A stretch of 64,000 nt of DNA, taken from IMG/VR virus record IMGVR_UViG_3300037722_001090, one strand, 5' to 3'. The notes under the pieces were generated by a model, which was given only the letters and a program-made list of their open reading frames with translations, did not search any database and was not told the DNA's origin. Both the position numbers and the translations under genes were made by a program. This document shows, piece by piece, positions 179 through 42,162 of the stretch. Source of the stretch: a virus. Its lineage: Duplodnaviria > Caudoviricetes. Within the stretch, counting starts at the first letter, position 1; every line of letters starts with the position of its first letter.

Positions 179-264
179 TGGTACCCGACCCCGGACTCGA
201 ACCGGGACGCCTTGCGGCATGGGGCCTAAACCCAACGGCTATACCATAGTTCGCCTAGCCGGGC
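179..264 (-). tRNA. tRNA-Leu(TAG)
   Basis: Full cloverleaf, long variable arm, loop TT-TAG-GC, GTTCGAGTC T arm, CCA encoded. Confidence 0.92.
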
Positions 265-271
265 ACATTGT

Positions 272-787
272 TTAACCATTATATCCTTTAAACCACTCAT
301 CAAGCTCAGGATCTTTATGTCTTTTAACTATAAACTCATAAAGCATAGGCTGATAAGGTTTATAACTTTTCTTGAAATAGCTCATTCCAGCTTCTTCAGG
401 TGTTCTATCTGCTTTTTTCTGATTACAATCATGACAAGCAGATGCTACATTGTCCCAGGTAGTCTTACCTCCCTTAGAGGAAGGAACTACGTGTTCAATT
501 TCAAGTTGTTTTATGGTCAATGATGCGCCACAATAAACACAGCGATAGCCATCTCTTTCAACCATATTTTCTTTGCTGAATCTTAGTCGCTTACCATATA
601 GCCCTTTAGCTAAATCAAACAGCTTTATCTTCTTTGGAACGAAGCTAGTCTCACGTATATTACTCAAGTCACCTTCGTAATCAACAAGAAAGGCTTTGCC
701 GTTTTCAATCATATGCTTAGCGCGTCTGGTTGAAACTTTATTGATGCATGCAAAGTCAGCGTTGAGTACTGAAACTGACCCTTTCAT
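272..787 (-). CDS. HNH endonuclease (McrA-like)
   Basis: RDGYRCVYCG...EHVVPSSKGGKTTWDNVASACHDCNQKK HNH motif. Confidence 0.9.
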   Translation of the reverse strand: MKGSVSVLNADFACINKVSTRRAKHMIENGKAFLVDYEGDLSNIRETSFVPKKIKLFDLAKGLYGKRLRFSKENMVERDGYRCVYCGASLTIKQLEIEHVVPSSKGGKTTWDNVASACHDCNQKKADRTPEEAGMSYFKKSYKPYQPMLYEFIVKRHKDPELDEWFKGYNG

Positions 788-821
788 AATACACACTAGA
801 CCTTTCTTTTTATTTTATTGT

Positions 822-899
822 TGGTGTGACCGAGGAGATTTGAACTCCCGTTCATTGATTCACAGTCAATGCGATTAGCCTAGCTATCTTACAGTCACC
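822..899 (-). tRNA. tRNA-His(GTG)
   Basis: Cloverleaf, loop CT-GTG-AA, extra 5' G, CCA encoded. Confidence 0.9.
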
Positions 900-903
900 A
901 CAT

Positions 904-986
904 TGCAGGTACATGGGGAATCGAACCCAAAAGTGAAGAGTTTTGGAGGCTCTTGCTAACCCAGCTAGCTTTACACTCACGCACCT
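904..986 (-). tRNA. tRNA-Trp(CCA), enlarged D region, no encoded CCA
   Basis: Loop CT-CCA-AA, T arm GGG-TTCGATT-CCC, acceptor AGGTGCG/TGTACCT, ends GCA. Confidence 0.75.
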
Positions 987-989
987 AAA

Positions 990-1400
990 ATCGAGCTAGT
1001 TTTGTACATCGGAAACTAGCAACCTTCTGCTTACTTATCGTGTAAGTGTCCCAGACAATAAACATACAAATAAAGGGCAGGGTTTTTACCTGCATCAATA
1101 GACAATCCTTTCTTAAGGGACTGACCCTCACTAAAGAAGGTTACATATTTATATGCTTATTTTCATATAATGAGTTCTCTCCACTCAATAAGTCAAGCCT
1201 TGAAGCTACATGCAAGTCGCTATGCTTCTTACATATACCTTACCGTCAATACGGAGTATGCCGGCTTTCACCACTTTAATCAATAATCCACTCTTGGCGT
1301 TCCTTCCAAGCGATATCTGTCAATTCAGATCTAAATGGTGCGCATTCATTTTTATGGTACTCTTAGAGGGCTCGTAAGCCAAAACCATGCTATTATTGTT
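990..1400 (-). ncRNA. candidate structured ncRNA
   Basis: About 400 nt with no credible ORF inside the tRNA cluster; serial hairpins (gctagttt/aaactagc, gcagg/cctgc, ccgt/acgg, cttgg/ccaag). Confidence 0.35.
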
Positions 1401-1423
1401 CAGCGTTTAGGAAATATTATTTT

Positions 1424-1469
1424 TGGTTGGGATAACTGGATTTGAACCAGTGACCCCCGAGTTATCAGC
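1424..1469 (-). pseudogene. 3' half of split tRNA-Ile(GAT)
   Basis: GCTGATAA loop, T arm ACTGG-TTCAAAT-CCAGT, TATCCCA-A-CCA; the matching 5' half lies at 2077-2096. Confidence 0.8.
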
Positions 1470-1472
1470 TTT

Positions 1473-1546
1473 TGGTACGCTCACTAAGAATTGAACTTAG
1501 ATGGTCCGGTTATCAGCCGAATCCTCTACCGTTGAGGTATGAGCGT
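1473..1546 (-). tRNA. tRNA-Ile(GAT)
   Basis: Cloverleaf, loop CT-GAT-AA, acceptor ACGCTCA/TGAGCGT, CCA. Confidence 0.88.
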
Positions 1547-1599
1547 ATAGTTTCGAATTTAGTTATTAACACTTATCACATATTGATAAGGAGTTAATA

Positions 1600-2085
1600 A
1601 TGAATTCATGCTTAAATTGTAGTAAAGAAACACTTAATCCAGTATTTTGTTCACGCTCATGTTCTGCTTCCTATGCTAATAAAATAAAGCCAAAACGTAA
1701 GAAAGAGGGTAAATGTGCAATCTGTAATGAAATAATCTCTGCTTCAAGGGCTTATTGTTCAGATATTTGTCGTGGTAAAGCTAGATCTATTGCCCGTAAA
1801 AATTCTAAAGCAAAAACGGGATATGAAAATATAAAAACCCACCGGCAAAAAGTCAAATTAAGAGCCGTACAATATAAAGGAGATAAATGTCAAATATGTA
1901 ATTATGATAAAACACCAGTTAATCTATCATTTCATCATTTAAATCCAGGTAAAAAAGATTTTAACCTTAGTGGTAATTATCACTTAACCTGGGAGACAAT
2001 ACAGGCTGAACTTGATAAATGTATTTTATTATGTATGAATTGTCATGGAGAAGTTCATGTAGGAATTATAAAAATTCCAGACTGA
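1600..2085 (+). CDS. HNH homing endonuclease with N-terminal Cys-rich zinc fingers
   Basis: CxxC...CSxxC repeats, then CQICNYDK...HHLNP...KCILLCMNCHGEVH; antisense to the tRNA cluster. Confidence 0.88.
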   Translation: MNSCLNCSKETLNPVFCSRSCSASYANKIKPKRKKEGKCAICNEIISASRAYCSDICRGKARSIARKNSKAKTGYENIKTHRQKVKLRAVQYKGDKCQICNYDKTPVNLSFHHLNPGKKDFNLSGNYHLTWETIQAELDKCILLCMNCHGEVHVGIIKIPD

Positions 2086-2096
2086 GCTATACCCCA
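2077..2096 (-). pseudogene. 5' half of split tRNA-Ile
   Basis: TGGGGTA-TA-GCTC-AGTCTGG; TGGGGTA pairs with TATCCCA of the 3' half at 1424-1469. Confidence 0.7.
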
Positions 2097-2102
2097 ATAA
2101 AC

Positions 2103-2170
2103 TGTGGAAGAACTGACGAGTCATCGTCAACAGGATATCACTTGCAACCCTACAGGAGGGAAATTCTTCC
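2103..2170 (-). tRNA. degenerate tRNA-like gene
   Basis: Perfect acceptor GGAAGAA/TTCTTCC, T-like arm TGACG/CGTCA, no canonical D/T loop consensus. Confidence 0.4.
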
Positions 2171-2218
2171 ATAACTTTTTTTTAACTGGAGCGGGTAATC
2201 GGGCTACCTGCTTTTTAT

Positions 2219-2293
2219 TAGAGCGGATGGTCGGGATCGAACCGACGACAAACAGTTTGGAAAACTGCAATTCTACCACTGAATTACACCCGC
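2219..2293 (-). tRNA. tRNA-Gly(TCC)
   Basis: Cloverleaf, loop TT-TCC-AA; ends CTA instead of CCA. Confidence 0.92.
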
Positions 2294-2308
2294 ATTGAAC
2301 TTTTTAAC

Positions 2309-2393
2309 TAGTGGGACGGATAGGACTCGAACCTATGAAACCCGAAGGTGGAAGATTTACAGTCTTCTGCAATTGCCACTATGCGACTGTCCC
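2309..2393 (-). tRNA. tRNA-Tyr(GTA)
   Basis: Cloverleaf with long variable arm, loop CT-GTA-AA; ends CTA. Confidence 0.92.
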
Positions 2394-2424
2394 ATGATGC
2401 CACCCATAGGTGGACTTTTATTTA

Positions 2425-2760
2425 TTGATTGGCCCCCTTCTGATCTAAAGAGCATTTAATCAAATCCGCTTGAACCAATCTTCTAGATATAATTGAGGAT
2501 TTTCTTTATAGACGTGAACTCATCCTCTGCAAACATGTCTTTCCGATAAGAGTGTAGGATTATTTTATCTTACGGGAGCTTACTCCGCTACTTCAATACC
2601 GCTAGGCTTCACCTGATTGCTTATGTCAGTCACGCCATCACCGCACATAAGGCGTGCGTCCCAGTTTCCTCTTATCTAGCAACTCAAGCCATAGACGCCT
2701 GATCCGTTCAGGTCAATTAAGAACACGATATCACAATCGGCCCTCTATGGGTTTCGTATT
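2425..2760 (-). ncRNA. candidate structured ncRNA
   Basis: About 330 nt ORF-free; helices GATAAGAG/CTCTTATC, CACGCC/GGCGTG, CCTGA/TCAGG, GGAG/CTCC. Confidence 0.4.
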
Positions 2761-2814
2761 TGGTGCCAGACCAGCTGCAACCATGAATCACAGCTCTCTC
2801 GAGATCCGTCTGGC
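2761..2814 (-). ncRNA. miniature tRNA-like RNA with CCA end
   Basis: Perfect 7-bp GCCAGAC/GTCTGGC + A-CCA, internal AGCTG/CAGCT stem, only 54 nt. Confidence 0.55.
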
Positions 2815-2830
2815 TTTTTGTTAAACTAAT

Positions 2831-2905
2831 TGTGGACCCTATCGGGCTCGAACCGATAACCTCCTAAGTGCAAGTCAGGTGCTCCCCCAGTTGAGCTAAG
2901 GGCCC
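2831..2905 (-). tRNA. tRNA-Ala(TGC)
   Basis: Cloverleaf, loop CT-TGC-AC, G3:T70 pair; CCA not encoded. Confidence 0.92.
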
Positions 2906-2916
2906 ATTGTAAAATT

Positions 2917-2990
2917 TGGTCGAAAGTGATGGACTTTAACCACCGGCCTCCTCCACCCAAGGAGGTGCCCCTTCACCGGGCCGACTTTCG
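2917..2990 (-). tRNA. atypical tRNA-Pro-like gene with 6-nt anticodon loop
   Basis: C1:G72, A73, CCA; stem CCTCC/GGAGG closes TTGGGT; T loop TTAAAGT. Confidence 0.65.
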
Positions 2991-2997
2991 AAATTTT

Positions 2998-3076
2998 TGG
3001 ATGCGGATGCTAGATTTGAACTAGCGATCTTTTGGTTATGAGCCAAATGGGATAGGCCAGACTTCCCCAATCCGCA
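2998..3076 (-). tRNA. tRNA-Met(CAT)
   Basis: Cloverleaf, loop CT-CAT-AA, CCA. Confidence 0.88.
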
Positions 3077-3102
3077 AAACCATGTAGTTTTTTTTATGAA
3101 AC

Positions 3103-3600
3103 TTAAGAAAGCAAGTTCATTGCTTTAACAAACTTTGAAGCTCCAATGATTTCAGCAGCATCATAAAAAGCATTTACTTCTTCCTGCGTTGCAATACGCA
3201 TATTCTCTTCAGTAAAATGAGGAAGATTATTGCCTACAGCACCACCAATATCGACAGCATTCTTGCCTTGATATACAGCAATAAGCTCTCCAATAGCATA
3301 GCTATGACTGTTAGTATTGTCAAGAAGAAGAATCATAGCACCTTTGGGTGCTCCAAGGACAGAAGGCAGCAAAATATCTTTGGATTTAGTAGTGATCTTT
3401 TCACCAATAAGTTCTCCTACAATACCAATAATATCTCTTTTGCCACCAGAGCAAAAGTTACCCGATCCATTGATAAGAGCTAGAAGCTTTTTAGCCTTCT
3501 CACTAGGCTCTTTCTCTTTTTCAGTATAAGCTTTTTCAAGAATAGCAGACAATTGCTTTGTTGCTTCTAGAGACATTGCTCTAAGTTCTTTCAGATCCAT
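3103..3600 (-). CDS. hypothetical protein
   Basis: ORF; start moved to MDLKEL, which has a purine-rich RBS. Confidence 0.7.
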   Translation of the reverse strand: MDLKELRAMSLEATKQLSAILEKAYTEKEKEPSEKAKKLLALINGSGNFCSGGKRDIIGIVGELIGEKITTKSKDILLPSVLGAPKGAMILLLDNTNSHSYAIGELIAVYQGKNAVDIGGAVGNNLPHFTEENMRIATQEEVNAFYDAAEIIGASKFVKAMNLLS

Positions 3601-3637
3601 TTTAAAATTTCCTAAAAAGTTGTTTAAAGATACGGTG

Positions 3638-3988
3638 TTACATTTCAGAAATAAAACAATGACCATCATGTTCAACGGCCACACGAGTAGCAGGACCTAA
3701 AAGGTCACTATATTTACGAAGCCATAAACTGATTGTTGGTTGTGCTACACCAGTACTGAGAACGGCATTATAAAGCTCCTTGAACTTAATGGGAGCAGAA
3801 AATCTCCCACTTCTTCCACGGCCTAAGCGATAGTTAGGTCCAGCAGCAGCTTCAAGCTCTTTCGCAATAATACGGCGGGCTTTATATCCATATTGAGCAC
3901 CATGTGTAGGTACTCCTGGGATTTCTGCTTGTTGACGAAATTTCACTGCACGACAATCATTAAGCGCTTGTAAAAATTCCTTAGTCAT
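3638..3988 (-). CDS. hypothetical protein
   Basis: ORF with GAGG RBS, co-oriented with neighbours. Confidence 0.65.
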   Translation of the reverse strand: MTKEFLQALNDCRAVKFRQQAEIPGVPTHGAQYGYKARRIIAKELEAAAGPNYRLGRGRSGRFSAPIKFKELYNAVLSTGVAQPTISLWLRKYSDLLGPATRVAVEHDGHCFISEM

Positions 3989-4010
3989 ACTAAAAATTCC
4001 TCAAAAATGT

Positions 4011-4085
4011 TGGCGGCATAGACCGGGATTGAACCGGCAACTTCCTATTCGACAGACAGGCACTCTACCATTGAGTTACTACGCC
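4011..4085 (-). tRNA. tRNA-Asp(GTC)
   Basis: Cloverleaf, loop CT-GTC-GA, G73, CCA. Confidence 0.92.
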
Positions 4086-4094
4086 AGTTAATTT

Positions 4095-4177
4095 TGGCTC
4101 TGAGAGTTGGATTTGAACCAACGACCTCGCTTTTTAAAGGCGGCCACCTACGCGCTCTACCACTGAGCTATCTCAGA
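4095..4177 (-). tRNA. atypical tRNA with about 10 extra nt in the anticodon arm (loop CTTTAAA, possible TTA anticodon)
   Basis: Perfect acceptor TCTGAGA/TCTCAGA, canonical D and T arms, G-CCA; anticodon arm distorted. Confidence 0.7.
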
Positions 4178-4191
4178 ACACTATTCAGTTT

Positions 4192-4270
4192 TGGTTACCA
4201 GGACCGGAGTTGCACCGATGACCACCTACCCGTGTAGATAAGTAGCTCTTTTACTGAGTCTTACCCGGCA
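4192..4270 (-). tRNA. atypical tRNA, 8-nt anticodon loop ATCTACAC (TAC- or CTA-like)
   Basis: Acceptor TGCCGGG/CCTGGTA, T loop TGCAACT, CCA. Confidence 0.6.
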
Positions 4271-4284
4271 ACATAATTTTTTAT

Positions 4285-4360
4285 TAGCAGTCGCACCGAG
4301 GATCGAACTCGGCTCTCAATCTTGAAAGGATTGCGTCCTGGCCTACTAGACGATGCAACC
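4285..4360 (-). tRNA. tRNA-Glu(TTC)
   Basis: Cloverleaf, loop CT-TTC-AA; ends CTA. Confidence 0.92.
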
Positions 4361-4375
4361 AAAAACCTTAAGTAA

Positions 4376-4453
4376 TGGAGCCCACTATCGGATTCGAACC
4401 GATGACCTACGGGTTACAAATCCGTTGCTCTGGCCGAACTGAGCTAAGCGGGC
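4376..4453 (-). tRNA. tRNA-Thr(TGT)
   Basis: Cloverleaf, loop TT-TGT-AA, CCA. Confidence 0.93.
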
Positions 4454-4460
4454 AATTAAT

Positions 4461-4534
4461 TGGTGGGCCTTATCAGACGTTACCCTGATCCAACTGCATG
4501 TACTGTGCAGCTGAGCAACTTACACTATCGTCCC
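4461..4534 (-). tRNA. degenerate tRNA-like gene
   Basis: CCA end, GCTGC/GCAGT stem with 9-nt loop, ATCAG/CTGAT T-like stem, weak acceptor. Confidence 0.4.
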
Positions 4535-4560
4535 ATATTAAATTTTTTATTACTACTTAT

Positions 4561-4652
4561 TGGCTCCCCAGAGTGGGCTCGAACCACTATACCGCTCTCG
4601 CGGAATACACTTGATTAACAGTCAAGCCTCTTACCAATTAGAGTACCGAGGA
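4561..4652 (-). tRNA. tRNA-Asn(GTT) with long variable arm
   Basis: Loop CT-GTT-AA, G73, CCA; extra CCGC-GAGA-GCGG hairpin in the variable region. Confidence 0.88.
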
Positions 4653-5189
4653 ATGGTATTTTTTATATCTTTTTCTTACAGCAGCTTCAGAAATATCTAG
4701 TATCTCTGAAATTTGTACATTAGTCATGGTCTTTTTTAGTTCTGTTAAATCTATTTTATCCCAATTGACTTTTCCTGATAGCTTAGCTGCACAATTATGA
4801 GAACAAGTTTTATTATACATTGGTTTTGAAGCACCACAAACAGGACACTCATTAATTTTAACAGTTATCATCTTGTATTCAGCATATTTTTCATTAAAAT
4901 ATTGTTTAACTTCAGGACTAGTTCTTATTCCTGAATGTATTTCGCAATGACAATTATGACATAAAAGAATACATTTTCTTAATTCTATAATAATTTTTTC
5001 CCAAGCCTTAGGATTACCTCTTATTGCTCCAAGAGTAAATTCTTTTTTACTAGGATCAAGATGGTGCAAAGCTAACGCGTCATTACACTTATCATATCCA
5101 CAACAAGAGCATTTACCTCCCATTGATAATACAATTCTTTCTTTTGTTTTTTTACGCCACTCTTTAACACGCTCAGAACCTTCACTCAT
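4638..5189 (-). CDS. HNH homing endonuclease with C-terminal zinc finger and HTH
   Basis: CSCCGYDK...HHLDP...KCILLCHNCHCEIH, then CPVCG...CSHNC and an HTH-like C-terminus; stop codon lies inside tRNA-Asn. Confidence 0.88.
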   Translation of the reverse strand: MSEGSERVKEWRKKTKERIVLSMGGKCSCCGYDKCNDALALHHLDPSKKEFTLGAIRGNPKAWEKIIIELRKCILLCHNCHCEIHSGIRTSPEVKQYFNEKYAEYKMITVKINECPVCGASKPMYNKTCSHNCAAKLSGKVNWDKIDLTELKKTMTNVQISEILDISEAAVRKRYKKYHSSVL

Positions 5190-5279
5190 AGAACCTCCAA
5201 CATAATTATTAACTATACATGTTAATAACTACATTATGGTTCTAAGAGTTTTACATTTTTAAAACGAGCACTGGGAGCT

Positions 5280-5334
5280 TGGTACTCTCTATCACGATCA
5301 AGTCGTGCTTCGCCTACCAGTTTTATCTAGTACT
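5280..5334 (-). ncRNA. miniature tRNA-like RNA candidate
   Basis: CCA end, CACGA/TCGTG hairpin, short terminal GTACT/AGTAC pairing. Confidence 0.3.
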
Positions 5335-5356
5335 TAGACTCATTTTAATAATTTAT

Positions 5357-5429
5357 TACCCAAGAACAAACGAAAACAGTGTTGGTTTCAATTCAAAGGT
5401 GAAGTAACTGTTTTCTAACACTATGGGTA
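5357..5429 (-). ncRNA. short Y-RNA-like hairpin RNA (paralogue of 6131-6284)
   Basis: TACCCA/TGGGTA and GAAAACAG/CTGTTTTC stems; shares TAGTGnTAGA...AGTTACTTC and TCG..TGTTCT with 6131-6284. Confidence 0.6.
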
Positions 5430-5448
5430 TATTTTTAACTTTTTCTTA

Positions 5449-5525
5449 TGGTCGGAATAGCAAGAATCGAACTTGCGACCTCTCCCTCCCAAGGGGAGCG
5501 CTCTACCAGGCTGAGCCATATTCCG
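5449..5525 (-). tRNA. tRNA-Pro(TGG)
   Basis: Cloverleaf, loop CT-TGG-GA, CCA. Confidence 0.93.
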
Positions 5526-21704: not shown

Positions 21705-21764
21705 GCCAACCTCCTTGTAAAGTTGATCTTCCGGGAGTGGAAGCCGAACAAGAATAGCAAGAGC

Positions 21765-27799: not shown

Positions 27800-28420
27800 G
27801 CCGCAAAGCGACTGAGTTTCCGTATTAAAATGTTTCCGTTTCCGTACTATAAGAACCAAAAATATAAAAAAGTACTGTAAGTATACGTACTATAAACATT
27901 AATTATTCATTTAAATTAAAATTAATATGTTTCCGTTATTAAAATAACATATATTAAGATAACTATTAAAATTGGAATAAGTGGAAGAAGGAGGAATAGT
28001 CCCTTTCTCCATACTATTTCTCTCAAAATAATAGCTCTTTATTAACATGTTTCCGTCAATAAGTTAAACATTAAGTAAATACTGAGTAAATTACTTACTC
28101 ACTATGTACTTTACGTACTTTACACACTTACGTTCTTCTAGTCTTATTCATTTAGTTAATCTAAATTTTAATTAATACTTGTCTTACACTTTCAAATTGG
28201 ATTTTTTGAACAGATACTTTACGTCAATAGACGTAAGAGTCTTACAGGAGGGAATTACATGAACGAGGGTTTTAAAACATTTCATCTTTACTCTCCTTGA
28301 TAATACAATAATAAATTAAAAGAAATAGATCAAAAATAGCAAAAGCTTTACTTATAATTATTTATTTCTATTTAAACAAGACTAGGCATTTTTTCTTACT
28401 TACGCCAACAAGTTTTATTA
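27800..28420. repeat. AT-rich non-coding region with five GTTTCCGT repeats (candidate replication origin)
   Basis: GTTTCCGT at 27816, 27832, 27838, 27929, 28049; TACTTTAC repeats; very AT-rich; no credible ORF. Confidence 0.5.
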
Positions 28421-32258: not shown

Positions 32259-32411
32259 TTAAATAGTTATCCATCCAGCTGCTTGAGCTTTAGCACCCAA
32301 GAAGGCAAAGACAGTTCCTTCAACAGTCAGGTGCAGTAAGTAACCGACAAGCACCCACATTGCCGTAGCAAGTTTGTGATGTCTGCGCATGAAGCGTCTG
32401 AAGTTTTGCAT
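32259..32411 (-). CDS. small membrane peptide
   Basis: AGGAGG RBS before MQNFRRF. Confidence 0.55.
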   Translation of the reverse strand: MQNFRRFMRRHHKLATAMWVLVGYLLHLTVEGTVFAFLGAKAQAAGWITI

Positions 32412-32496
32412 ATAGTGCCTCCTGCATAGGTTAAGGGACCATCGAGAATAGCAAGTGAATAAAAAAATAGGGGACCCGAAGATCCCCCATTCTTGT

Positions 32497-33066
32497 TTAC
32501 TTCTGCAGCTTGGCCGCTTCTTCCGCCTGCTTGCGGAGCGCGAATGCCGAGAGGCCGCCTTCTTCGCCGGTACCAGCGGTGGTCGACTCATCTTCGAGCC
32601 GGTTCGTGGTTTTGGCCTTGGGCTGCTTCAAACAGCTCAGGTCGATGTCTTCCGGGGCGATGAACGAGGGGAGCGTGGCAGCACTGCCTTTGAACCGATC
32701 GAGCAGCGTGCATTTGCTGTACTCCTGATACTCCACGACGTATTCGCCGCCGGTAGCCGTTTCGCCCCGGTATTCGCCGTGTTTTTCCGACTTGAACGCG
32801 AAGGCAATGCGGTCGCCCTCCAAAACCGACAGCCAGGCCTTGTCACGGGCATTTTCGAGCGATCCGTAGATCACGGCACGATTGCCCGAAGCCAGACCGA
32901 CGTTGACGATGAAGTCACTGCCGGATTTTTCGTTCCCACGGAGATCTGTTTTGCTGATCCGGGCGACTTCTTCGTCCAGGACCAAACAGATTTTCCCACG
33001 CGCTCCGGAGAGCAACTCGGTGAGTTCTTTGGTGAACTGTTTCTTTTCCATAACGTACTCCTTCAA
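32497..33066 (-). CDS. GC-rich hypothetical protein
   Basis: 189-aa ORF, terminator downstream at about 32458-32490. Confidence 0.75.
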   Translation of the reverse strand: MKEYVMEKKQFTKELTELLSGARGKICLVLDEEVARISKTDLRGNEKSGSDFIVNVGLASGNRAVIYGSLENARDKAWLSVLEGDRIAFAFKSEKHGEYRGETATGGEYVVEYQEYSKCTLLDRFKGSAATLPSFIAPEDIDLSCLKQPKAKTTNRLEDESTTAGTGEEGGLSAFALRKQAEEAAKLQK

Positions 33067-33084
33067 AAAGTGTAAAAAGGTTCA

Positions 33085-33174
33085 AGAATAGCACGTACTC
33101 ACACACCCATAGTGTAAGTCAGTAGCTCTTTTTTCTCATAGATAGCACAGGACACGCACTCTCGTAGATAGCAC
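33085..33174 (-). promoter_or_regulatory. cluster of GTGCTAT motifs upstream of a gene
   Basis: GTGCTATTCT at 33085-94 and GTGCTATCTA at 33139-48 and 33165-74. Confidence 0.45.
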
Positions 33175-33384
33175 GAATCTACGCATACGTACACTGTATT
33201 AGATATATAGACCTTAGGCCCTTCGTGTGATACCAGGCCCGTCGTAAGTGTAGAAGCGTCAAGGCTTCAATAGCTATACTCTGCTTGCTGGCTCCAGGTC
33301 AACGGTGGAGCACCATACCGTACAGCTCGCATTATATAGCTAATAAAAAAAGGGAGCCCGTTAGGACCCCCTTTTAATTACATA

Positions 33385-33654
33385 CTAATACCTACGCCAA
33401 TAACAACCCTCACCTATTGATATTCCATGAGACGTTGGCCCACAATAATGACCATCAGTAATAGACGAAGCTCTACTCCCTGTAGGAAGAGGATCCTTAC
33501 CAACTAAGAACTTATTCATTCTTAGTCTACCAATCTCCTTATCAATAGCGTTCATTCTATTCTTCACCTTCTGTCTATCTTCTTTACTGATGGGACGACC
33601 AAGTCTTAATTCAAGATCAGCACTCTCCATAAACAACGCATCTACTCTGTGCAT
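33385..33654 (-). CDS. hypothetical protein
   Basis: ORF directly downstream of the RNAP gene, terminator after it. Confidence 0.6.
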   Translation of the reverse strand: MHRVDALFMESADLELRLGRPISKEDRQKVKNRMNAIDKEIGRLRMNKFLVGKDPLPTGSRASSITDGHYCGPTSHGISIGEGCYWRRY

Positions 33655-33710
33655 GATATAAACCTTTCTAGGCAGTTTAACGACATGCCCAGGTCAGTAA
33701 GAGTTAACTA

Positions 33711-36700
33711 TTAGAGATCGCCTTCACCCTGAGCCATGATACGATCCATGTACTCAGTAGCCTCACGCTCGATACGTTTACGGATATTCTCCGCCACAGC
33801 AATCTCAACATCCTTAATGTACGGATTGTCAGGATTCACACGCTTAGCAAGAGGAATGATGAACTTATCCGCATCGAACAGCCAGAACAAGCTGCCAGGC
33901 TTACTGGTAATCTTATCCGCACCAGTATCCCTGTCCTGACCAGACCAAGTGCCGAAAGACTGAACACCAATCGACAACATGAGCTGCTCCTTAAACTCAT
34001 CCATGAAGAAGCGATAATCAGGCTTACCGAAATACTTCTTACAAGCAAACTCAGCAATGATATCAATGTAACCGCGATAATCATTGGCAAGTGCAGCCCA
34101 GGCAATACGACGAGCCCTCTTGTCCACAATGAGAGACTTGTCATCCTGCAGAATCCTGGAATGCAGAGAATACCCCTCAATGATGGTACCATAAAGATTA
34201 CCACCATTAATGAGCAGGCTAGTAGCATTCAATACGAACTGAGGAGTCCAAGGAAGCTCAGCTTTGAGCTGCCTGAATTCACTATGAAGTGCTACCTTCT
34301 TTGCCCATTCAGTACGACAAAGATTACGCATATCAGTACTGTCCGAATGACGAGTAGTACAACTCACATCACGCAGAACATTAAGGACATGGCGGTAAGG
34401 GTTATATTCACTGCACTTGATATCCTGCAACTTACGGATAATCGCCTTCATGCAAAGATGCGGAATACCCTTAACGCTACTGTTCCCTCCATCCTTACGG
34501 AGAGCGCAGTAATCCTGAGGAGCAGAACGCAGCGGCATAACACGGCCATTAACACCATAAAGGCGAGTAATGGTTGCTGCAGCATCTTCCTCAGCAGAAA
34601 TGTCATGATGCTTCATGCCATCAATTGCAAGCTGGACAATCTCACCCATATGCATGATCTGAGCAGGAGTGAGAGGAGTACCATTCCACCAATTCTCGAA
34701 GATGATCTGCCGAGACAGGTTATCCAGAGAGCCAGTATCAATAGCACTCTGAGCAATAGCCAAGTAAGCCCTATAGGTCTGAGTGACAAATGCTTCTTCA
34801 CTCATAAGGCCTTTGGCTTTAGCCTTCTTCTCCTTAACAGGAGGGAGAGGACGCTCAGTTACAGGGAATGCGATGTCAGGATGAGGGAATACAATACAAG
34901 TATCCCCATCGACATCACCGAACATAGTCCAGAGAGCCCTTGCGCTAAGCTCAATGCAATCCGTAGTACCATTCAACTTGTGATGATGAAACTCCATGAA
35001 GTTACCATCACCAACAACCGGATTACGACCAATGTTCCATTTAGTATCGGGCCCAAGAAGCTTCGTGAACTTCTTCTTGCTGGGACCGTTGAACATATAG
35101 ACCTTCTCATTAGTCTCCAGAAAATGCTTATACTCGAGCAGGTCAAGCTCTTCATTAACCTCCAAGTAGAAGGCCAAATCAGACAGCCGCACCTTATACA
35201 CATTCTGGATCAAGTAAGTCCAAATACGAGCCATCATAACAGTAATGCGACTCGTATACATAGGAACACGCCAATCACCAAGCTCTTCGTCATATTTAGT
35301 GAAGAGGAAAGCCTTAAGTGGCTCACTAATAGCATCGTCCATAGTGGCTTCAGCATCCGACTTCAAGATACTGAGATAGCCACTAGCCTTACCTGCCAAT
35401 GCATCAACTACGATCTGCGCATTAGGAATCGCAGTCTCCACAATACGAGACACAAGCTCACTGTCCAAACGAACAGACTGAACACCAAGCGACGACTTTC
35501 CATCACTAACCTTGATTGCAACAATACGCAATGCAGGTTTCTCAGGAGTAATGGGAATAAGCACGATATCACCATGCTTGAGCCGGCCCTTCTGCGTTTT
35601 AAAGTTACCAAGACCCATGATAGCATCCTGATCCTCAAGATTGAAGCCATACTCTTCAACCTTCTCCTCATACCTGTTCACATGAAACATACACTTGCCC
35701 TTGAAGCTAGGCATCACATCACCAACCTTGAATTGGTAGATAGAAGGATTGGTCACGGCCAACTCAGCCATTACCTTAACATCAGCCTCATCAAATACAT
35801 GATAGCTCCTCGCCTGAGCATTTCCGTTAACACGCTCCTCTTTAGGAGGCTTAGGCACAGTCACTTCCTTGCCAGCAGTAACTGCAGCATTATACTCCTC
35901 CATCTGCTTAGCAAACCTCTTAAGCTCACTGACAGGAGTGTACCACATGCTAAGACAAGTAAGCATGTTACCATCGTTAAGAGGGTGTCCGCCCCAACCA
36001 GTCATATGTTCGGTGCGAGGAGTGTGACCAACAATCTCATCATTAATAACGCGCACACGAAGATACTGAGCATTCTCCGTACTTGCGATCTGATAAGGAT
36101 TGGGCGTCATGAACGTACCAGTAGGCTTAAACGGATTGTCATGATTACGAGGATCGTCACCCATCAACTCTGTCCAATCCTCAAGATATGCCTTACCAAG
36201 CAAAGGTTCACTCTTCTTAGCATTACCAAGTACGTGCTTGGCTTCACTAGCGGCTACATCCTGCATACGCTTGAAGATCTTAACCCTGTTGTTAGAGTCG
36301 TGCTCTTCAATAGACATAGGGATAACCTTGCCTCCCTTGCACCACTCATAGAATGGCGAGTTCGAGGCAATCTCAATCATGGCATCAGTACCATTAATGA
36401 CAAAGTCCGTACCGATAACCACCTCCTTTTGTACCGGATCACCATGCTCATCAATGCCTGCTTGCGTTTCAGTGATCTCAATCACCGCACCAGTATAGAC
36501 AATGCCCTTAACTTTCTCAAGCGTAGGGCTAAGTCCATGCAACCTGATCTTCGGATCATTCTCCGAGACAGGGTTAACTGCACCACTATACTCTTTAGGC
36601 TTAGTGGCGATAAGGCTGAGCTTCCTGTTCTTCATGGCATCTCCCTTGTTGTGGGCCTCCAGTTTGTCTTTGAACAGTTGCACCTGCTCTTTAACGGTGC

Positions 36701-37322
36701 CCTGTTTGACGAAGGCCGAAATTTCAATCTCTTTGAATCCAGCCAATTTGAGAATCTGCTGGTCCGACTTACCCCTGATGAGTGCTTCGGTTGCGCGACG
36801 GGCCTTTCTTCCCTGAGCAACAAACATGTCCTGAATGATCCTGTTCATATCTGCCAATTTGTCATTGCGCTCCACCTTGGAACGGACATCTTTGAGCTGG
36901 AACTCATAAATAGAGTTAACCAACTCCATGCCTTCGAGCTTTCTGAACTCAGACCGATGCATACCGATCTTATAGGCAATGAGACGTAAGTCGTCATCGC
37001 CACCCTCTTTGTTGAGGATGTTGATCAGCGTGGTCTTGTTCTTGAACCCTTCCGGATCCTCGAATTCCTCAGGCAGCAGAGAACGGCTCATGAACTCATA
37101 AATCACGATGCGCAGACGATCAGCAGTTGCCGCATTGTACGTGGTGTACAAAGGAACGCCGAGGTCCTTCGCGATCTCCTTGAGGGCAGTGATACCCTTT
37201 TCATCAAGACCCTTCTTCTTGATGATGACTTTAATCTGCGTCTGGTTCATGTGTACCTCCTTGTGGTTAGATTTCTTGCCATTAACGCCATTGCCATTGG
37301 TGTTACCGTTGTGCTGTGTCAT
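33711..37322 (-). CDS. single-subunit two-barrel (DPBB) RNA polymerase, YonO/cellular-RdRP-like
   Basis: GRNP...IEL...GDVDGD (34902-34919), matching beta' R.P...ADFDGD; plus NDG, AQAR, FKGK, QLAIDGMKH in RdRP order; GGAGG RBS before MTQHNG. Confidence 0.85.
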   Translation of the reverse strand: MTQHNGNTNGNGVNGKKSNHKEVHMNQTQIKVIIKKKGLDEKGITALKEIAKDLGVPLYTTYNAATADRLRIVIYEFMSRSLLPEEFEDPEGFKNKTTLINILNKEGGDDDLRLIAYKIGMHRSEFRKLEGMELVNSIYEFQLKDVRSKVERNDKLADMNRIIQDMFVAQGRKARRATEALIRGKSDQQILKLAGFKEIEISAFVKQGTVKEQVQLFKDKLEAHNKGDAMKNRKLSLIATKPKEYSGAVNPVSENDPKIRLHGLSPTLEKVKGIVYTGAVIEITETQAGIDEHGDPVQKEVVIGTDFVINGTDAMIEIASNSPFYEWCKGGKVIPMSIEEHDSNNRVKIFKRMQDVAASEAKHVLGNAKKSEPLLGKAYLEDWTELMGDDPRNHDNPFKPTGTFMTPNPYQIASTENAQYLRVRVINDEIVGHTPRTEHMTGWGGHPLNDGNMLTCLSMWYTPVSELKRFAKQMEEYNAAVTAGKEVTVPKPPKEERVNGNAQARSYHVFDEADVKVMAELAVTNPSIYQFKVGDVMPSFKGKCMFHVNRYEEKVEEYGFNLEDQDAIMGLGNFKTQKGRLKHGDIVLIPITPEKPALRIVAIKVSDGKSSLGVQSVRLDSELVSRIVETAIPNAQIVVDALAGKASGYLSILKSDAEATMDDAISEPLKAFLFTKYDEELGDWRVPMYTSRITVMMARIWTYLIQNVYKVRLSDLAFYLEVNEELDLLEYKHFLETNEKVYMFNGPSKKKFTKLLGPDTKWNIGRNPVVGDGNFMEFHHHKLNGTTDCIELSARALWTMFGDVDGDTCIVFPHPDIAFPVTERPLPPVKEKKAKAKGLMSEEAFVTQTYRAYLAIAQSAIDTGSLDNLSRQIIFENWWNGTPLTPAQIMHMGEIVQLAIDGMKHHDISAEEDAAATITRLYGVNGRVMPLRSAPQDYCALRKDGGNSSVKGIPHLCMKAIIRKLQDIKCSEYNPYRHVLNVLRDVSCTTRHSDSTDMRNLCRTEWAKKVALHSEFRQLKAELPWTPQFVLNATSLLINGGNLYGTIIEGYSLHSRILQDDKSLIVDKRARRIAWAALANDYRGYIDIIAEFACKKYFGKPDYRFFMDEFKEQLMLSIGVQSFGTWSGQDRDTGADKITSKPGSLFWLFDADKFIIPLAKRVNPDNPYIKDVEIAVAENIRKRIEREATEYMDRIMAQGEGDL

Positions 37323-37401
37323 AGACACCTCCAAAGAATGAATATGCGATATGCATACTACGTTAAAAAAAAGGGCAGACCCGAAGGCCCACCCTTTAAT
37401 T

Positions 37402-37617
37402 TTACTTCTTCAGCATTTGTCTTTGCAGATCAATACCGATCTGTGCTGCAAGATCGAAGTATTGGATCATCCTAGCATACCTATGCATATGCCTTTCATA
37501 TCCTTCCTTGTCGCCAATCTGAAGCGACAGCAATGCTGCTTCCAGATGAATCCTGGCATTCCTATGGTACCAGATGCCAATTCTAATGTACCGCCTCTTC
37601 TTCTTATGGTTCTTCAT
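37402..37617 (-). CDS. small basic protein
   Basis: AAGGAG RBS, terminator downstream at 37364-37397. Confidence 0.6.
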   Translation of the reverse strand: MKNHKKKRRYIRIGIWYHRNARIHLEAALLSLQIGDKEGYERHMHRYARMIQYFDLAAQIGIDLQRQMLKK

Positions 37618-37867
37618 GACAAGCTCCTTTCTCTTCATCAAGGCGAGTATAAATCTCAATCACTGTCAATCTAGACTGACCAGTGATAGCCATAGCGTAC
37701 AATACACTATAGCCGTTTTCATAACACTGCTCCACACTCATTTGCATAAGACCTCCTTTCATAATGCGAATAAGCCCCTGACTACACTTAGGACACAGAT
37801 CGTCCGCGACATCATACGTATTAAGTTCCATCACACTATAACACGTACTGCAAACAAACTTAGCCAT
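37604..37867 (-). CDS. zinc-ribbon protein
   Basis: AGGAG RBS; CSTC...CPKC. Confidence 0.65.
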   Translation of the reverse strand: MAKFVCSTCYSVMELNTYDVADDLCPKCSQGLIRIMKGGLMQMSVEQCYENGYSVLYAMAITGQSRLTVIEIYTRLDEEKGACHEEP

Positions 37868-38030
37868 CACACCACTCCTTTCTTCCCCTACACCCACTAT
37901 AAAACCTACACTTGTTTCTTTTGCACATACGCTTATTCCTCCTCTTCCTCTTCGTGGCAGCACTCACAGGTAAAGCCAGTAATCTCACCAATACACCAGT
38001 ATTTATCTTCTTCACACAGTTAGTTAATTG

Positions 38031-38174
38031 TTAGATCCAGCTGTTAAAGGTAGCAGTAGCAGCACTACTACCCATTTTAAGCGACAAGTAACGCACAGCT
38101 TGCACATTACTAATGGCTCCAGCTTTGAATAGCAACTGGACACGGAAGATACGACGGCCTGCATGCTTGCCCAT
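38031..38174 (-). CDS. 47-aa hypothetical protein
   Basis: AAGGAG RBS, MGKHAGRRIFRVQ... Confidence 0.55.
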   Translation of the reverse strand: MGKHAGRRIFRVQLLFKAGAISNVQAVRYLSLKMGSSAATATFNSWI

Positions 38175-38325
38175 ACTCACACTCCTTTCAGTTCAGGTAC
38201 AAATACAATAGCCATCCAGAACGACACCCACACTAATGCAACAATAGTCATGGCTCTTCTCCTTAGATATATGTGCATAATTGCACCTAATAAAAAAAGG
38301 GGCTAAAGAACAGCCCCTTTAATTA

Positions 38326-38583
38326 CTACCCGATCATTCTAAGTCCTCTAGCGTGAGGAACAATCTTGACAGTCGCACTTTCATACTTGCCAAGGACCTC
38401 ATACAGCTCCTCCAGATGATCGAAATCACCCTTAAGAGTACGATTAATTACCTTTTTGCAAGCCCCATCCTTAGCAAGGCTTCTCCAAGAGGAAGTTATC
38501 CTTCTTTCCAGTTGCCCAATCTTCTGATCAAGGATATTGAGCTCGTCTTCAACAACCATTTTGTTCGCTGCGATAACCATCAT
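38326..38583 (-). CDS. hypothetical protein
   Basis: GGAGG RBS, own terminator at 38291-38320. Confidence 0.65.
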   Translation of the reverse strand: MMVIAANKMVVEDELNILDQKIGQLERRITSSWRSLAKDGACKKVINRTLKGDFDHLEELYEVLGKYESATVKIVPHARGLRMIG

Positions 38584-38663
38584 GTTACACCTCCAAGGAA
38601 TTTGATATCACCGATATGGCGATATACCTATTAAAAAAAAAGGGACCCGAAGGCCCCTTGATT

Positions 38664-38873
38664 TTATATAACTCTTAGCATCATCACATAAGTGCCTCCA
38701 ATTACATTATAGTTTTTAATAACTATATTTACCTCTTCGCATAACTTTAATTCCCTTTTGACCTTTTCGCCTAATATAATACCATCATATTTAGCACCAA
38801 AATCTACAACAACATAAGCACCAGTCTGCACAACAACACCTCTCTTTACAGCACCTAACATAACTACCTCCAA
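38664..38873 (-). CDS. hypothetical protein (OB-like)
   Basis: Own terminator at 38633-38660; beta-rich, VDFGAKYDGII resembles the S1 motif. Confidence 0.5.
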   Translation of the reverse strand: MEVVMLGAVKRGVVVQTGAYVVVDFGAKYDGIILGEKVKRELKLCEEVNIVIKNYNVIGGTYVMMLRVI

Positions 38874-39176
38874 GTATAAGAATTAAACTTACGCACACAT
38901 ACTATATATGTACATATCTAATAAAAAAGGGCCTATTGTAGCGCCCCACATTATTACTTGTACTGAGTATCGCGATAATGCTTCCAAGTACGAAGATCAT
39001 GATTATAATTATGATTTACGCGCAGACGACGCACACGCACTTGAAGTGCCTCTTTACGTAAATTCCAACCACCACATACTGGACAAGTATGAGCCATAAT
39101 AGTTCTCCTTGTTATGGTACATTATTGTACCTAATAAAAAAGCGGGGCAATATGCACCCCGCCTCTATATAACCCC

Positions 39177-39350
39177 CTATGCCATGCATCTACCAGCATA
39201 GAGCTGCATGAAGACATCTCTCGGCATGAGATCTCCGCCTATGTATGTGCCCATATCTTGCACTATGCATGCCTCAGGTAGGAAGGCCTCTGCAGCCTCC
39301 CTATCGCATCTCTCGATAGCTTCTTCAATGGACCTACAGATGATAGTCAT
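39177..39350 (-). CDS. 57-aa hypothetical protein
   Basis: AAGGAG RBS, own terminator at 39134-39163. Confidence 0.55.
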   Translation of the reverse strand: MTIICRSIEEAIERCDREAAEAFLPEACIVQDMGTYIGGDLMPRDVFMQLYAGRCMA

Positions 39351-39575
39351 GGTATCTCTCCTTTAGTTAATGGTTAATAGTTAGATATATAGGCATAGTG
39401 CGACAAGCACCATACCCACAACGAACGGGTACAACTCTTGGGCCATGATACGCCCCTTCCCAACCTTACTCTTACCCTGATACATACGCATAGTACACCT
39501 CCACTATATAGGCATGATTGCCTAATAAAAAAAACGGGGGTTATTAGCCCCCGCCTCTATATAAGCCCCTTAGTA

Positions 39576-39854
39576 CTACATGCTTATTAGGTTCTCGCGT
39601 AAACAGCCTAACCTACATGCTGCTTGATATAGTAATCCTCTATCTACAAGATCACTAACCTTCTCCAATTCAAACATACATCCAGTAATAGCCAGCTTAT
39701 ATACTGGTCTAATCTTAGTAGCACCACTTAAGGACACACAATACATGGTACTGTTATCGCCCTTATATGCACACCTACTGTGCCTATTAACCTCATCACT
39801 AAGAACAACAAACTCGCCTACTACATTGTCATATGTTACGCTCAACATTGTCAT
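39576..39854 (-). CDS. hypothetical protein (first gene of the left arm)
   Basis: GGGAG RBS, own terminator at 39525-39553. Confidence 0.6.
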   Translation of the reverse strand: MTMLSVTYDNVVGEFVVLSDEVNRHSRCAYKGDNSTMYCVSLSGATKIRPVYKLAITGCMFELEKVSDLVDRGLLYQAACRLGCLRENLISM

Positions 39855-40270
39855 GATGATTCTCCCTGTTAATTGTTAGAAGTCGACCCCGGGGTTGCAA
39901 ATAGTCCATACCGACCTACATCTATATACCTACAGTCCTTTAATCACTCCAGCCCATTTCAATCTCATATCTAGGCTTTTTAGATCATCACTTCACTCCA
40001 GCCCATTTCAAATCCACTATAGACTTAAGCTTTTTACTCCACTCCTTTACACGAAACCTTTAATAAGACTTTTCCTTATTAAAACTTTCCCCATATTCGA
40101 TGCCGGGGTCTGTGACAAAAATCTTTTCCATTTTCCCCTATACGTTTCCCTCATATAGGACCAAAGTCATTTTGATTTCATATTTGACCTTTCTAATATG
40201 CACACTTAGCCTATTTCCCTTATTAACATACTGTACATAGATATGTACTTATTTTTTTTAGGAGAACATA

Positions 40271-40912
40271 ATGTCAACATTATACAATGCAGCTACAAAT
40301 AAAATCCCATCTCTTACATCGCCAGAACTTCCAAAAGAAGAAGCACTTAACAGTGTAGGTCCTTGGAAGCAAATCAAGGTCGTAACATTGCAAGATAATG
40401 AACTATCTGTTTCAGGTGCAATTTTACCAGAGAAAGCTTCAGACTTAAAAATACATCTTAAATATGCAAACGATGGTAGCACTAATAATGTTTGGCCATA
40501 TCTAAAGATAAATGAAGGAGTTCCTGGAGATACTATTGAGATAGTAGACCCAAAACACTGGGATCAAATACGCTGTAGTGGATCTTTATGGGATCCAGCA
40601 GGCGTTAAGACAGCGTGGAGCCAGACATCTGATGAGCTTCTTCCATCAGATAATTTACAAGGATATGAAGTAGACATTATTGTTTCTGCTGAACTGGGAA
40701 GAATATACGTTCATGGATTCGGTACTTTATGGAAATATTTAGCAGGCGAATATATTCCATACAAAGTAAATATTTACGGAGAAGATTACGTCAATACCCT
40801 ATATCCTATTTCACTAGATAGTATTTCTAAGTTTGGTATATATAATTGGGAAAACTCAACAGTCAATCTGCATGCTTGTGAACAAATTTCTGCCTGGTAT
40901 AAACCACAATAA
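40271..40912 (+). CDS. hypothetical protein
   Basis: AGGAG RBS, terminator at 40925-40947. Confidence 0.75.
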   Translation: MSTLYNAATNKIPSLTSPELPKEEALNSVGPWKQIKVVTLQDNELSVSGAILPEKASDLKIHLKYANDGSTNNVWPYLKINEGVPGDTIEIVDPKHWDQIRCSGSLWDPAGVKTAWSQTSDELLPSDNLQGYEVDIIVSAELGRIYVHGFGTLWKYLAGEYIPYKVNIYGEDYVNTLYPISLDSISKFGIYNWENSTVNLHACEQISAWYKPQ

Positions 40913-42000: not shown

Positions 42001-42162
42001 ATGAGCAATAAGAAGATAGCTAAAAAAACAGTAGATATTCCTAGTGATCTATTTGAAAAGATTATGACTTATTCACATGAGAATAAGATATATAAGTTTA
42101 GTCCTGCAGTTATTCAATTAATTGAAATTGCACTAAAGAGCCTTGAGGAAGGAGATGGATAA
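42001..42162 (+). CDS. 53-aa ribbon-helix-helix DNA-binding protein (below ORF-track cutoff)
   Basis: GGAG RBS; KKTVDIPSDLFEKI...FSPAVIQLIEIAL; stop overlaps the next ATG. Confidence 0.65.
   Translation: MSNKKIAKKTVDIPSDLFEKIMTYSHENKIYKFSPAVIQLIEIALKSLEEGDG

Follow-up and report, generated by a model that had tools for sequence, protein, structure and literature searches.

The 64,000-nucleotide stretch analysed here (IMG/VR record IMGVR_UViG_3300037722_001090; hereafter the window) is part of the genome of a large uncultured phage of the Caudoviricetes from sediment or soil metagenomes. The beginning of its minus-strand arm, next to a transcription divergence point at about 40.2 kilobases (kb), is an array of small-gene cassettes that leads into the gene for a predicted single-chain RNA polymerase (RNAP). 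The evidence is best accommodated by a model in which this array is the early, pre-polymerase arm of the phage, cut into six short transcription units by composite terminator/restart modules similar to the promoter-early stem-loop (PeSL) elements of T4, and in which the small hairpin behind each terminator is a 5'-proximal stem-loop of the early mRNA; the probability of this reading is put at roughly 45%.

A terminator scan of the minus-strand reading of 37000-40300 finds six strong rho-independent terminators (folding free energies of -9 to -17, tails of 6-9 T), whose T-runs end at 39527, 39136, 38923, 38633, 38292 and 37365. The general layout of the 19 modules known from 8 phages is an intrinsic terminator, a run of 5-9 T, ATTAG(G), a hairpin of 4-10 base pairs (bp) and a Shine-Dalgarno (SD) sequence. 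The original prediction had described T-runs on the minus strand that are each followed by a small inverted repeat and then a ribosome-binding site, and this holds throughout; the five hairpins that it listed were all recovered in place, ATATCGCC-ATATC-GGTGATAT being located at 38605-38625, while a sixth, ATATGTACATAT at 38906-38917, had been overlooked and the ATTAG(G) right after the T-run had been under-reported. SD-guided gene calls divide the array into six transcription units, the smallest with one and the largest with about five small open reading frames (ORFs). In the order of transcription, with lengths in amino acids (aa), the features are as follows.

39576-39854, minus strand: first early ORF, 92 aa, an ORFan
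39498-39558, minus strand: Module 1, with terminator stem 39530-39558, T8 39527-39534, ATTAGG 39521-39526 and SD 39498-39502
39509-39524, minus strand: Module 1 hairpin, TAGGCA-ATCA-TGCCTA, with core AGGCAATCATGCCT at 39510-39523
39177-39491, minus strand: Unit 2, two ORFs (36 aa and 57 aa) with neither terminator nor hairpin between them
39105-39163, minus strand: Module 2, with terminator, T6 39136-39141, ATTAGG and SD
39116-39131, minus strand: Module 2 hairpin, GGTACA-ATAA-TGTACC, which is GGTACAATAATGTACC
38954-39097, minus strand: Unit 3 ORF, 47 aa, with a CxxC motif
38866-38950, minus strand: Module 3, with terminator, T6 38923-38928, ATTAGA, a longer leader and SD
38906-38917, minus strand: Module 3 hairpin, the palindrome ATATGTACATAT
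38664-38861, minus strand: Unit 4 ORF, 65 aa
38590-38659, minus strand: Module 4, with terminator 38640-38659, T9 38633-38641, AATAGG and SD
38605-38625, minus strand: Module 4 hairpin, ATATCGCC-ATATC-GGTGATAT, with one G·T pair, on the sense strand only
38326-38583, minus strand: Unit 5 ORF, 85 aa
38259-38320, minus strand: Module 5, with terminator 38296-38320, T7 38292-38298, ATTAGG and SD
38273-38286, minus strand: Module 5 hairpin, GTGCA-ATTA-TGCAC, which is GTGCAATTATGCAC
37402-38251, minus strand: Unit 6, a dense group of about five small ORFs (24, 47, 22-51, 87 and 71 aa) without internal terminators or hairpins
37328-37397, minus strand: Module 6, immediately upstream of the RNAP gene, with terminator 37370-37397, T8 37365-37372, AACGTAG and SD
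37341-37359, minus strand: Module 6 hairpin, AGTATGC-ATATC-GCATATT, with core ATGC-ATATC-GCAT at 37344-37356

Each transcription unit thus carries one hairpin, right behind the terminator, and none occurs between genes inside a unit. Over the 19 modules the hairpin begins 1-8 nucleotides (nt) past the T-run (3-8 nt in the six of the window) and ends 1-15 nt, mostly 5-15 nt, before an SD sequence that stays unpaired; in the window the ribosome site is GGAG(G), followed by the start codon. Loops are AT-rich (ATNN or ATATC) and span 3-9 nt, with 17 of 18 hairpins having 4-7 nt. The most conserved element is ATTAG(G), and a T5-9 run joined to ATTAG is found in 13 of the 19 modules. Behind the T-runs of the window stand ATTAGG (three times), ATTAGA, AATAGG and AACGTAG, so that ATTAG(G) is present in four of the six array modules (39534, 39141, 38928 and 38298) and again at 33351, the AATAGG at 38641 differing by one mismatch; TTTTTATTAG has five minus-strand copies, all between 33349 and 39531.

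The hairpins are not a matter of chance. In all window modules the stretch that runs from the T-run to the SD gives a more stable fold than its own shuffles (p 0.000-0.022), and the summed minimum free energy of the 19 modules is -151 kcal/mol, against -50 +/- 7 in shuffles. The 30 nt preceding the SD have a mean of -2.2 in 85 other window genes, which lack such hairpins there, and of -5.95 in the modules (Mann-Whitney p 0.0009). The original prediction that stems vary with compensation while loops are kept is borne out by the nine hairpins aligned as class A, in which 92.6% of cells pair (74.6% in shuffles, 26-46% with slid partners), five of six pairs are altered on both sides, and covariation scores 0.59 against 0.26 with 0 of 500 shuffles as high, in an alignment that was anchored on the hairpins and so favours structure; the loop-closing pair is A-T in nine of nine, and the AT of the loop is invariant. 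Because the stems covary they appear to be under selection, and because they do so while their sequence is free, a structure is indicated rather than a protein operator. The pairing also leans to the sense strand, with a summed energy of -151 there and -125 on the antisense strand, and eight of the 19 hairpins contain G·U pairs that are possible on the sense strand only.

A search for the motif in relatives, taken as contigs that carry homologues of the window RNAP, yielded 13 further modules in seven related metagenomic phages. Counterparts of Module 6 stand upstream of the RNAP gene in L001, L003, L004, L005, L006 and L009, with stems that differ: L003 has four modules of T6-8, ATTAGG and hairpin, one of them immediately upstream of the RNAP gene; L005 has an ATTGGG...CCCAAT hairpin at that place, and L001 and L004 a hairpin of different sequence; L006 has T8 with ATTAGG, and L009 has T7 with ATTAGA and GGAGC/GCTCC. 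L011 contributes three or four modules. The only sequence that the modules share is the T5-9 run with ATTAG(G), which keeps its position in L003 (four times), L006, L009 and L011. Since the RNAPs of these relatives are only 21-43% identical to the window enzyme, the conservation of T-run, ATTAG and hairpin presence, with the stems left free, goes far beyond neutral expectation. Scans of IMG/VR and of JGI metagenomes for relatives of the RNAP gave zero confirmed loci, and a pattern scan of IMG/VR with TTTTTATTAGG and the loop motif combined hit 117 loci, which are regarded as chance matches because none has two or more terminator-linked copies.

The modules also mark the points at which cassettes are exchanged. 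When the contigs of four sequencing runs were compared with the array region, a related strain, represented by low-depth contigs in run X9 only, was found to depart from the window at 39157, in the Module 2 terminator, and at 38655, in the Module 4 terminator. Between these points two cassettes are replaced, T-run lengths vary, and the alternative terminator again leads into T7-ATTA. By analogy, this swap matches the behaviour of PeSL cassettes in T4-like phages (PMC4122927), and the repeated modules may serve as homology patches for the exchange of gene cassettes, as PeSL elements would. The likeness extends to short terminator stem-loop modules placed between small ORFan early genes, in many copies within one arm, and to recombination points at which close relatives differ by cassette replacement, here with the X9 breakpoints lying in terminators (PMC2839356, PMC4122927). 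In contrast to PeSLs, the modules have no recognisable sigma-70 early promoter and carry a conserved T-run with ATTAG(G) and a second, covarying hairpin, and the T4-like phages are unrelated to the present phage group, which encodes two-barrel RNAPs. An integron attC array was considered as another kind of cassette system and rejected: ATTAGGC resembles GTTRRRY, but no complementary inverse core (RYYYAAC) flanks the cassettes, and the strain breakpoints lie inside terminators, not at ATTAGG.

In the proposed mechanism, the T-run with ATTAG(G) would be a restart signal, that is, a short AT-rich promoter or initiator which overlaps the tail of the terminator and would direct starts to the A/G of ATTAGG or its vicinity; a cleavage site is the less likely option for this element. 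Six serial terminators separate the RNAP gene from the divergent region, and read-through alone would starve the RNAP, so each unit should need a restart of its own. The module must moreover act before the 1203-aa RNAP exists, because the RNAP gene itself sits behind one, and the polymerase that reads it may be the host enzyme or an injected virion RNAP. For virion RNAPs of jumbo phages, early promoters are AT-rich motifs of about 10 nt (PMC7598289), and a motif of this kind, the T5-9 run with ATTAG, stands ahead of the early units here. The hairpin would then lie at the extreme 5' end of each early mRNA as an RNA structure, where it may shield the message from 5'-end-dependent decay and hold the ribosome site open.

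Stabilising stem-loops at the 5' ends of bacterial and phage mRNAs are exemplified by the ompA leader and by the 5' stem-loop of the T7 phi10 transcript. The modules resemble them in having a short stem-loop of free stem sequence upstream of an unoccluded ribosome site, one per transcript, and the pairing is indeed found on the sense strand upstream of an SD that it does not occlude. They are unlike them in having an apex of conserved sequence and a fixed position with respect to the terminator before it. These two differences belong to a set of observations that weigh against the favoured model. In many hairpins the apex reads YA-ATNN-TR, with A8, T10 and T13 invariant (alignment A5), which a generic stabiliser does not need and which hints, to judge by sequence, at specific recognition by a protein or polymerase. 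In 11 modules the loop centre lies 10.5-12.5 nt from the T-run regardless of stem length, and this near-fixed distance would fit a linear bipartite DNA signal as well. The class A hairpins, folded as DNA, have the same stability on either strand (-4.3 to -5.1 kcal/mol). No sigma-70-like -35/-10 pair fits in the modules, so that a host-RNAP promoter would be unconventional, and the first early gene (39854) is without a clear T-run/ATTAGG module.

The original prediction had offered 5' stabilising or processing hairpins as its second choice, and the two halves of that choice fare differently: a 5' hairpin is favoured, as part of the composite terminator/restart module, while processing alone is rated lower and considered unlikely. 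Under processing alone, early RNA from one or more upstream promoters would leak through the terminators and UUUUUAUUAG, a single-stranded AU-rich segment between hairpins, would be cut by a host enzyme of the RNase E/RNase Y type, leaving the upstream RNA with its 3' terminator hairpin and the downstream RNA with a protective 5' hairpin. Processing by RNase III between the early genes of T7 offers a comparison. The same anatomy fits this scheme (a sense-strand hairpin, one per unit, and an AU-rich linker flanked by structures), as do modules that lack recognisable promoter hexamers. However, expression of the RNAP would then demand much read-through of six strong terminators, and ATTAG is stricter than the known preferences of RNase E/Y require.

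The first choice of the original prediction had been that the hairpins are N4-type promoters and form the recognition code of the adjacent RNAP, and here the nature of that enzyme counts.

33711-37322, minus strand: single-chain two-barrel RNA polymerase (predicted), 1203 aa, with a GDVDGD catalytic loop

The protein has no sequence match in Pfam, PHROG or PDB, three close homologues among 5.8 billion clusters and about 35 representatives in a library of 1.8 billion proteins. GDVDGD and the second-barrel lysines K538 and K572 are invariant across 27 homologues, and a profile of the family aligns the GDVDGD loop weakly to the NADFDGD loop of the phiKZ, vaccinia and AR9 beta' subunits. Residues 403-1003, modelled with AlphaFold, reach a predicted local distance difference test score (pLDDT) of 89.8. 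The Foldseek probability of the model is 1.0, and its matches are QDE-1 (E 7e-9) and the Thermus phage P74-26 gp62 and P32 gp64 RNAPs (3e-8, for gp62, to 1e-7), followed by crAss-like phi14:2 gp66 (4e-6) and P23-45 gp96 (4e-3). On the strength of the predicted fold, the protein is a genuine single-chain two-barrel RNAP of the QDE-1/YonO/gp64-like kind and not of the T7/N4 type; it is the sole DxDGD protein within the window. For nearly all phage RNAPs of this kind neither the promoters nor the layout of the transcripts are known, and the YonO promoter was still undefined in PMC5467207.

A structured DNA promoter in the style of N4, in which either the small hairpin is extruded or the terminator-like GC hairpin is read with the T-run as a ruler, would be recognised by the adjacent two-barrel RNAP or by an injected virion RNAP. 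N4 promoters (those of the virion RNAP of Schitoviridae) have a 5-7 bp stem, a 3-nt G/A loop, a G:C closing pair, a purine at -11 and G at -10 and -8, and their hairpin precedes a run of A in the template ahead of +1 (PMC4496689). The likenesses are a small hairpin with a partly conserved apex ahead of the early genes of an RNAP-encoding phage, and a GC hairpin with T-run that recalls the N4 hairpin with its A/T ruler. Specific recognition is further suggested by the invariant loop-closing A-T and loop AT and by the fixed distance from loop to ATTAG, and the class A hairpins are stable as DNA on both strands. Yet the loops are of 3-9 nt (mostly 4-7), AT-rich and closed by A-T, and the N4 loop, closing pair, -11 purine, -10G and -8G are all absent. 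Over all modules pairing leans to the sense rather than the template strand, where several stems are mismatched, though the class A hairpins are symmetric; the 38605-38625 hairpin is weak there as DNA (-2.3, z -0.7), and the ATATGTACATAT palindrome of Module 3 folds as DNA no better than its shuffles. The hairpin abuts the SD, and since it ends 1-15 nt before it, an N4-style start a few nt past the hairpin would leave almost no leader (0-10 nt). The neighbouring RNAP is a two-barrel enzyme outside the T7/N4 family, rather than a virion RNAP of the T7-like, single-subunit kind. A module precedes the gene of the two-barrel enzyme itself, and only genes past that one are marked by another motif, TGCTATTCTTG. 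The claim of an N4-type code for the adjacent RNAP is not supported, and the structured promoter in general is judged quite improbable. Given the G·U pairs confined to the sense strand, the proximity of the SD, loops unlike those of N4 and an RNAP gene behind a module, an RNA role for the hairpin is likelier than one as a DNA promoter. That the T-run/ATTAGG and hairpin form a structured early promoter for a tail-delivered two-barrel virion RNAP, with the AT-rich motif and the hairpin apex at its fixed distance jointly setting initiation on freshly injected DNA, is doubtful; if true, two-barrel (multisubunit-like) RNAPs would gain their first structure-dependent promoter, and the N4 system a convergent counterpart. 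More generally, were the hairpin read as DNA, recognition of promoter structure would reach beyond the T7/N4 polymerase family, while modules that combine promoter and stabiliser, as the favoured model has it, would be compact, portable terminator/restart parts that account for the shuffling of early ORFan cassettes.

A parallel to the enzyme is found in phage P23-45, where a virion RNAP fused to the tape measure protein transcribes the pre-early genes, including that of the two-barrel non-virion RNAP gp64, from a short AT-rich motif, and gp64 then serves promoters of its own (PMC10770324). The window shares with it an adjacent RNAP of the gp62/gp64 fold, an RNAP gene that closes a block of small early genes with a common AT-rich signal and special terminators, and a different motif marking the genes that come after the RNAP gene; the motif sequences, in contrast, are unrelated, and no hairpin element is described for the P23-45 promoters. 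The terminators of the P23-45 virion RNAP have a conserved 26-nt motif (PMC10770324), which lends some interest to a scheme in which ATTAG(G) and the hairpin after it are part not of the next unit but of the early-arm polymerase's terminator, for example as an element for pausing or release. Within the window ATTAG trails the early-arm terminators only (39534 to 33351) and no others, and it recurs past the RNAP operon, where no ORF comes for about 290 nt.

33320-33375, minus strand: terminator after the RNAP operon, T7 with ATTAGC and a weak hairpin only; no ORF for about 290 nt beyond

Such an extended terminator is nevertheless very unlikely: a hairpin beyond the U-tract is still untranscribed at release, its distance to the next SD is constrained, and L008 has ATTTAGG upstream of its RNAP gene with the terminator absent.

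Hidden early promoters of the host sigma-70 type, in true PeSL style and with the hairpin incidental, are in turn highly improbable. The arrangement, small early ORFs that each have a terminator and a restart, is that of T4 PeSLs (PMC4122927), and TA-rich hexamers (TATATA, TATATC) follow several hairpins. However, a consistent -35 is lacking and spacings differ, the hexamers lack T at -7 and their +1 would fall inside the SD, and the covarying hairpins are under selection. Separately, TATATAG was tried as a promoter and discarded, for it has five minus-strand copies in the array but occurs 16 times window-wide against 18 expected, at variable positions and with +1 in the SD. A pseudoknot of ATTAG with the terminator loop (CTAATAA) was likewise dropped, being possible in one module only.

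A second signal class begins where the RNAP operon ends. By k-mer counting, TGCTATTCTTG has 34 hits at one mismatch or fewer, against 2.15 +/- 1.3 expected; 28 of the 34 are on the minus strand, at 3537-33093, every one downstream of the RNAP gene and none in the array (examples are 33083-33093, 32443-32453, 28331-28341 and 21749-21759). Several copies lie 25-45 nt upstream of start codons, and the motif recurs past the RNAP gene in L001 and, as the variant TGCTAATCTTG, in L003.

33083-33175, minus strand: a tandem of three TGCTAT-type motifs (TGCTATCTA twice, then TGCTATTCTTG at 33083-33093), upstream of the first gene past the RNAP operon

These tandem motifs are a candidate for the start of a second promoter class. 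From its placement, TGCTATTCTTG may serve the adjacent RNAP as promoter; its likeness to an extended -10 element (TGnTAnnnT) makes recognition by host RNAP possible too. Under both readings, TGCTATTCTTG rather than the hairpins is the better candidate for what changes once the RNAP has been made.

Quasi-palindromes of the form (T)AGTTATTAACA / GTTAWTAAC recur at +1560, +22009, +41944, -5231 and elsewhere, one of them just upstream of the plus-strand gene at 42001, and GTTAWTAACA in the late arm is a candidate third (late) signal class. The phage clade would then have three separated classes, namely T-run/ATTAGG plus hairpin before the polymerase, TGCTATTCTTG after the polymerase gene and GTTAWTAACA in the late arm.

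Past the RNAP-operon terminator, the approximately 290 nt without an ORF (33095-33345, minus strand) contain CCGTTGACCTGGAGCC in the window. At this place the relatives have repeated GTGACC(T/C)...GGGC elements (L005:3283-3450, with three near-identical 21-mers; L003:7128-7200; L004:4243-4300; L001:7048-7120), for which non-coding RNA or iteron-like protein-binding repeats are possible roles.

Some RNAP homologues (P0002 and P0004, from L001 and L004) bear an N-terminal cpYpsA SLOG domain (PF12694), and five further members of the family have Rho_N-like domains (PF07498); the window enzyme has two Rho_N/SAP-like helix repeats near residues 26-150, of a kind that also matches many short proteins. 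In register with the RNAP gene, a stop-free antisense ORF of 942 aa runs along the plus strand (34161-36989), probably a consequence of codon avoidance in an early arm that is richer in GC (46%) than the late arm (34-38%).

The array ORFs are ORFans, a content typical of early genes. The array has no match in Pfam or PHROGs, nor in PDB by sequence; a PHROG scan of ten array and nearby ORFs returned just two borderline matches, both to families of unknown function, and the 87-aa zinc-ribbon ORF of Unit 6 has a homologue in L003. Among INPHARED phages nothing matched the window in nucleotide or protein sequence (RNAP and array, by tblastn and blastn), and Rfam at E <= 1 gave no match over 32400-40400. 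Elsewhere the window carries a tRNA array at 179-5525, genes of the RNA-repair type and, on the plus strand from about 46 kb, the terminase, portal and major head genes.

39855-40270, no strand assigned: divergent intergenic region between the minus-strand early arm and the plus-strand arm

Upstream of the first early gene this region contains the conserved TTGCAACCCCGGGG and, at about 40050-40080, a weaker module-like element, TTTTAATAAGG with an AATAAG/CTTATT hairpin. A small GC hairpin, TGCAACCCCGG(N)GGGG, lies at 39885-39905 on the minus strand and likewise at L003:45-60 and L011:1580-1600, so that three phages conserve TGCAACCCCGG upstream of the gene that opens the early arm. Two copies of a 19-nt direct repeat (TTGAAATGGGCTGGAGTGA) are found at 39950-40025 on the minus strand, and possible roles for them are as leader peptides, as an origin or site of packaging, or as the place where a polymerase lands. 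Each of them opens a mini-ORF (MGWSEVMI and MGWSD), and L011 has GGAATTGG repeats at the equivalent place. In L001, a relative contig of 112.9 kb, the early array stands at the extreme contig end, 2.9 kb upstream of the RNAP gene, a position compatible with the early arm being the physical genome end that enters the cell first.

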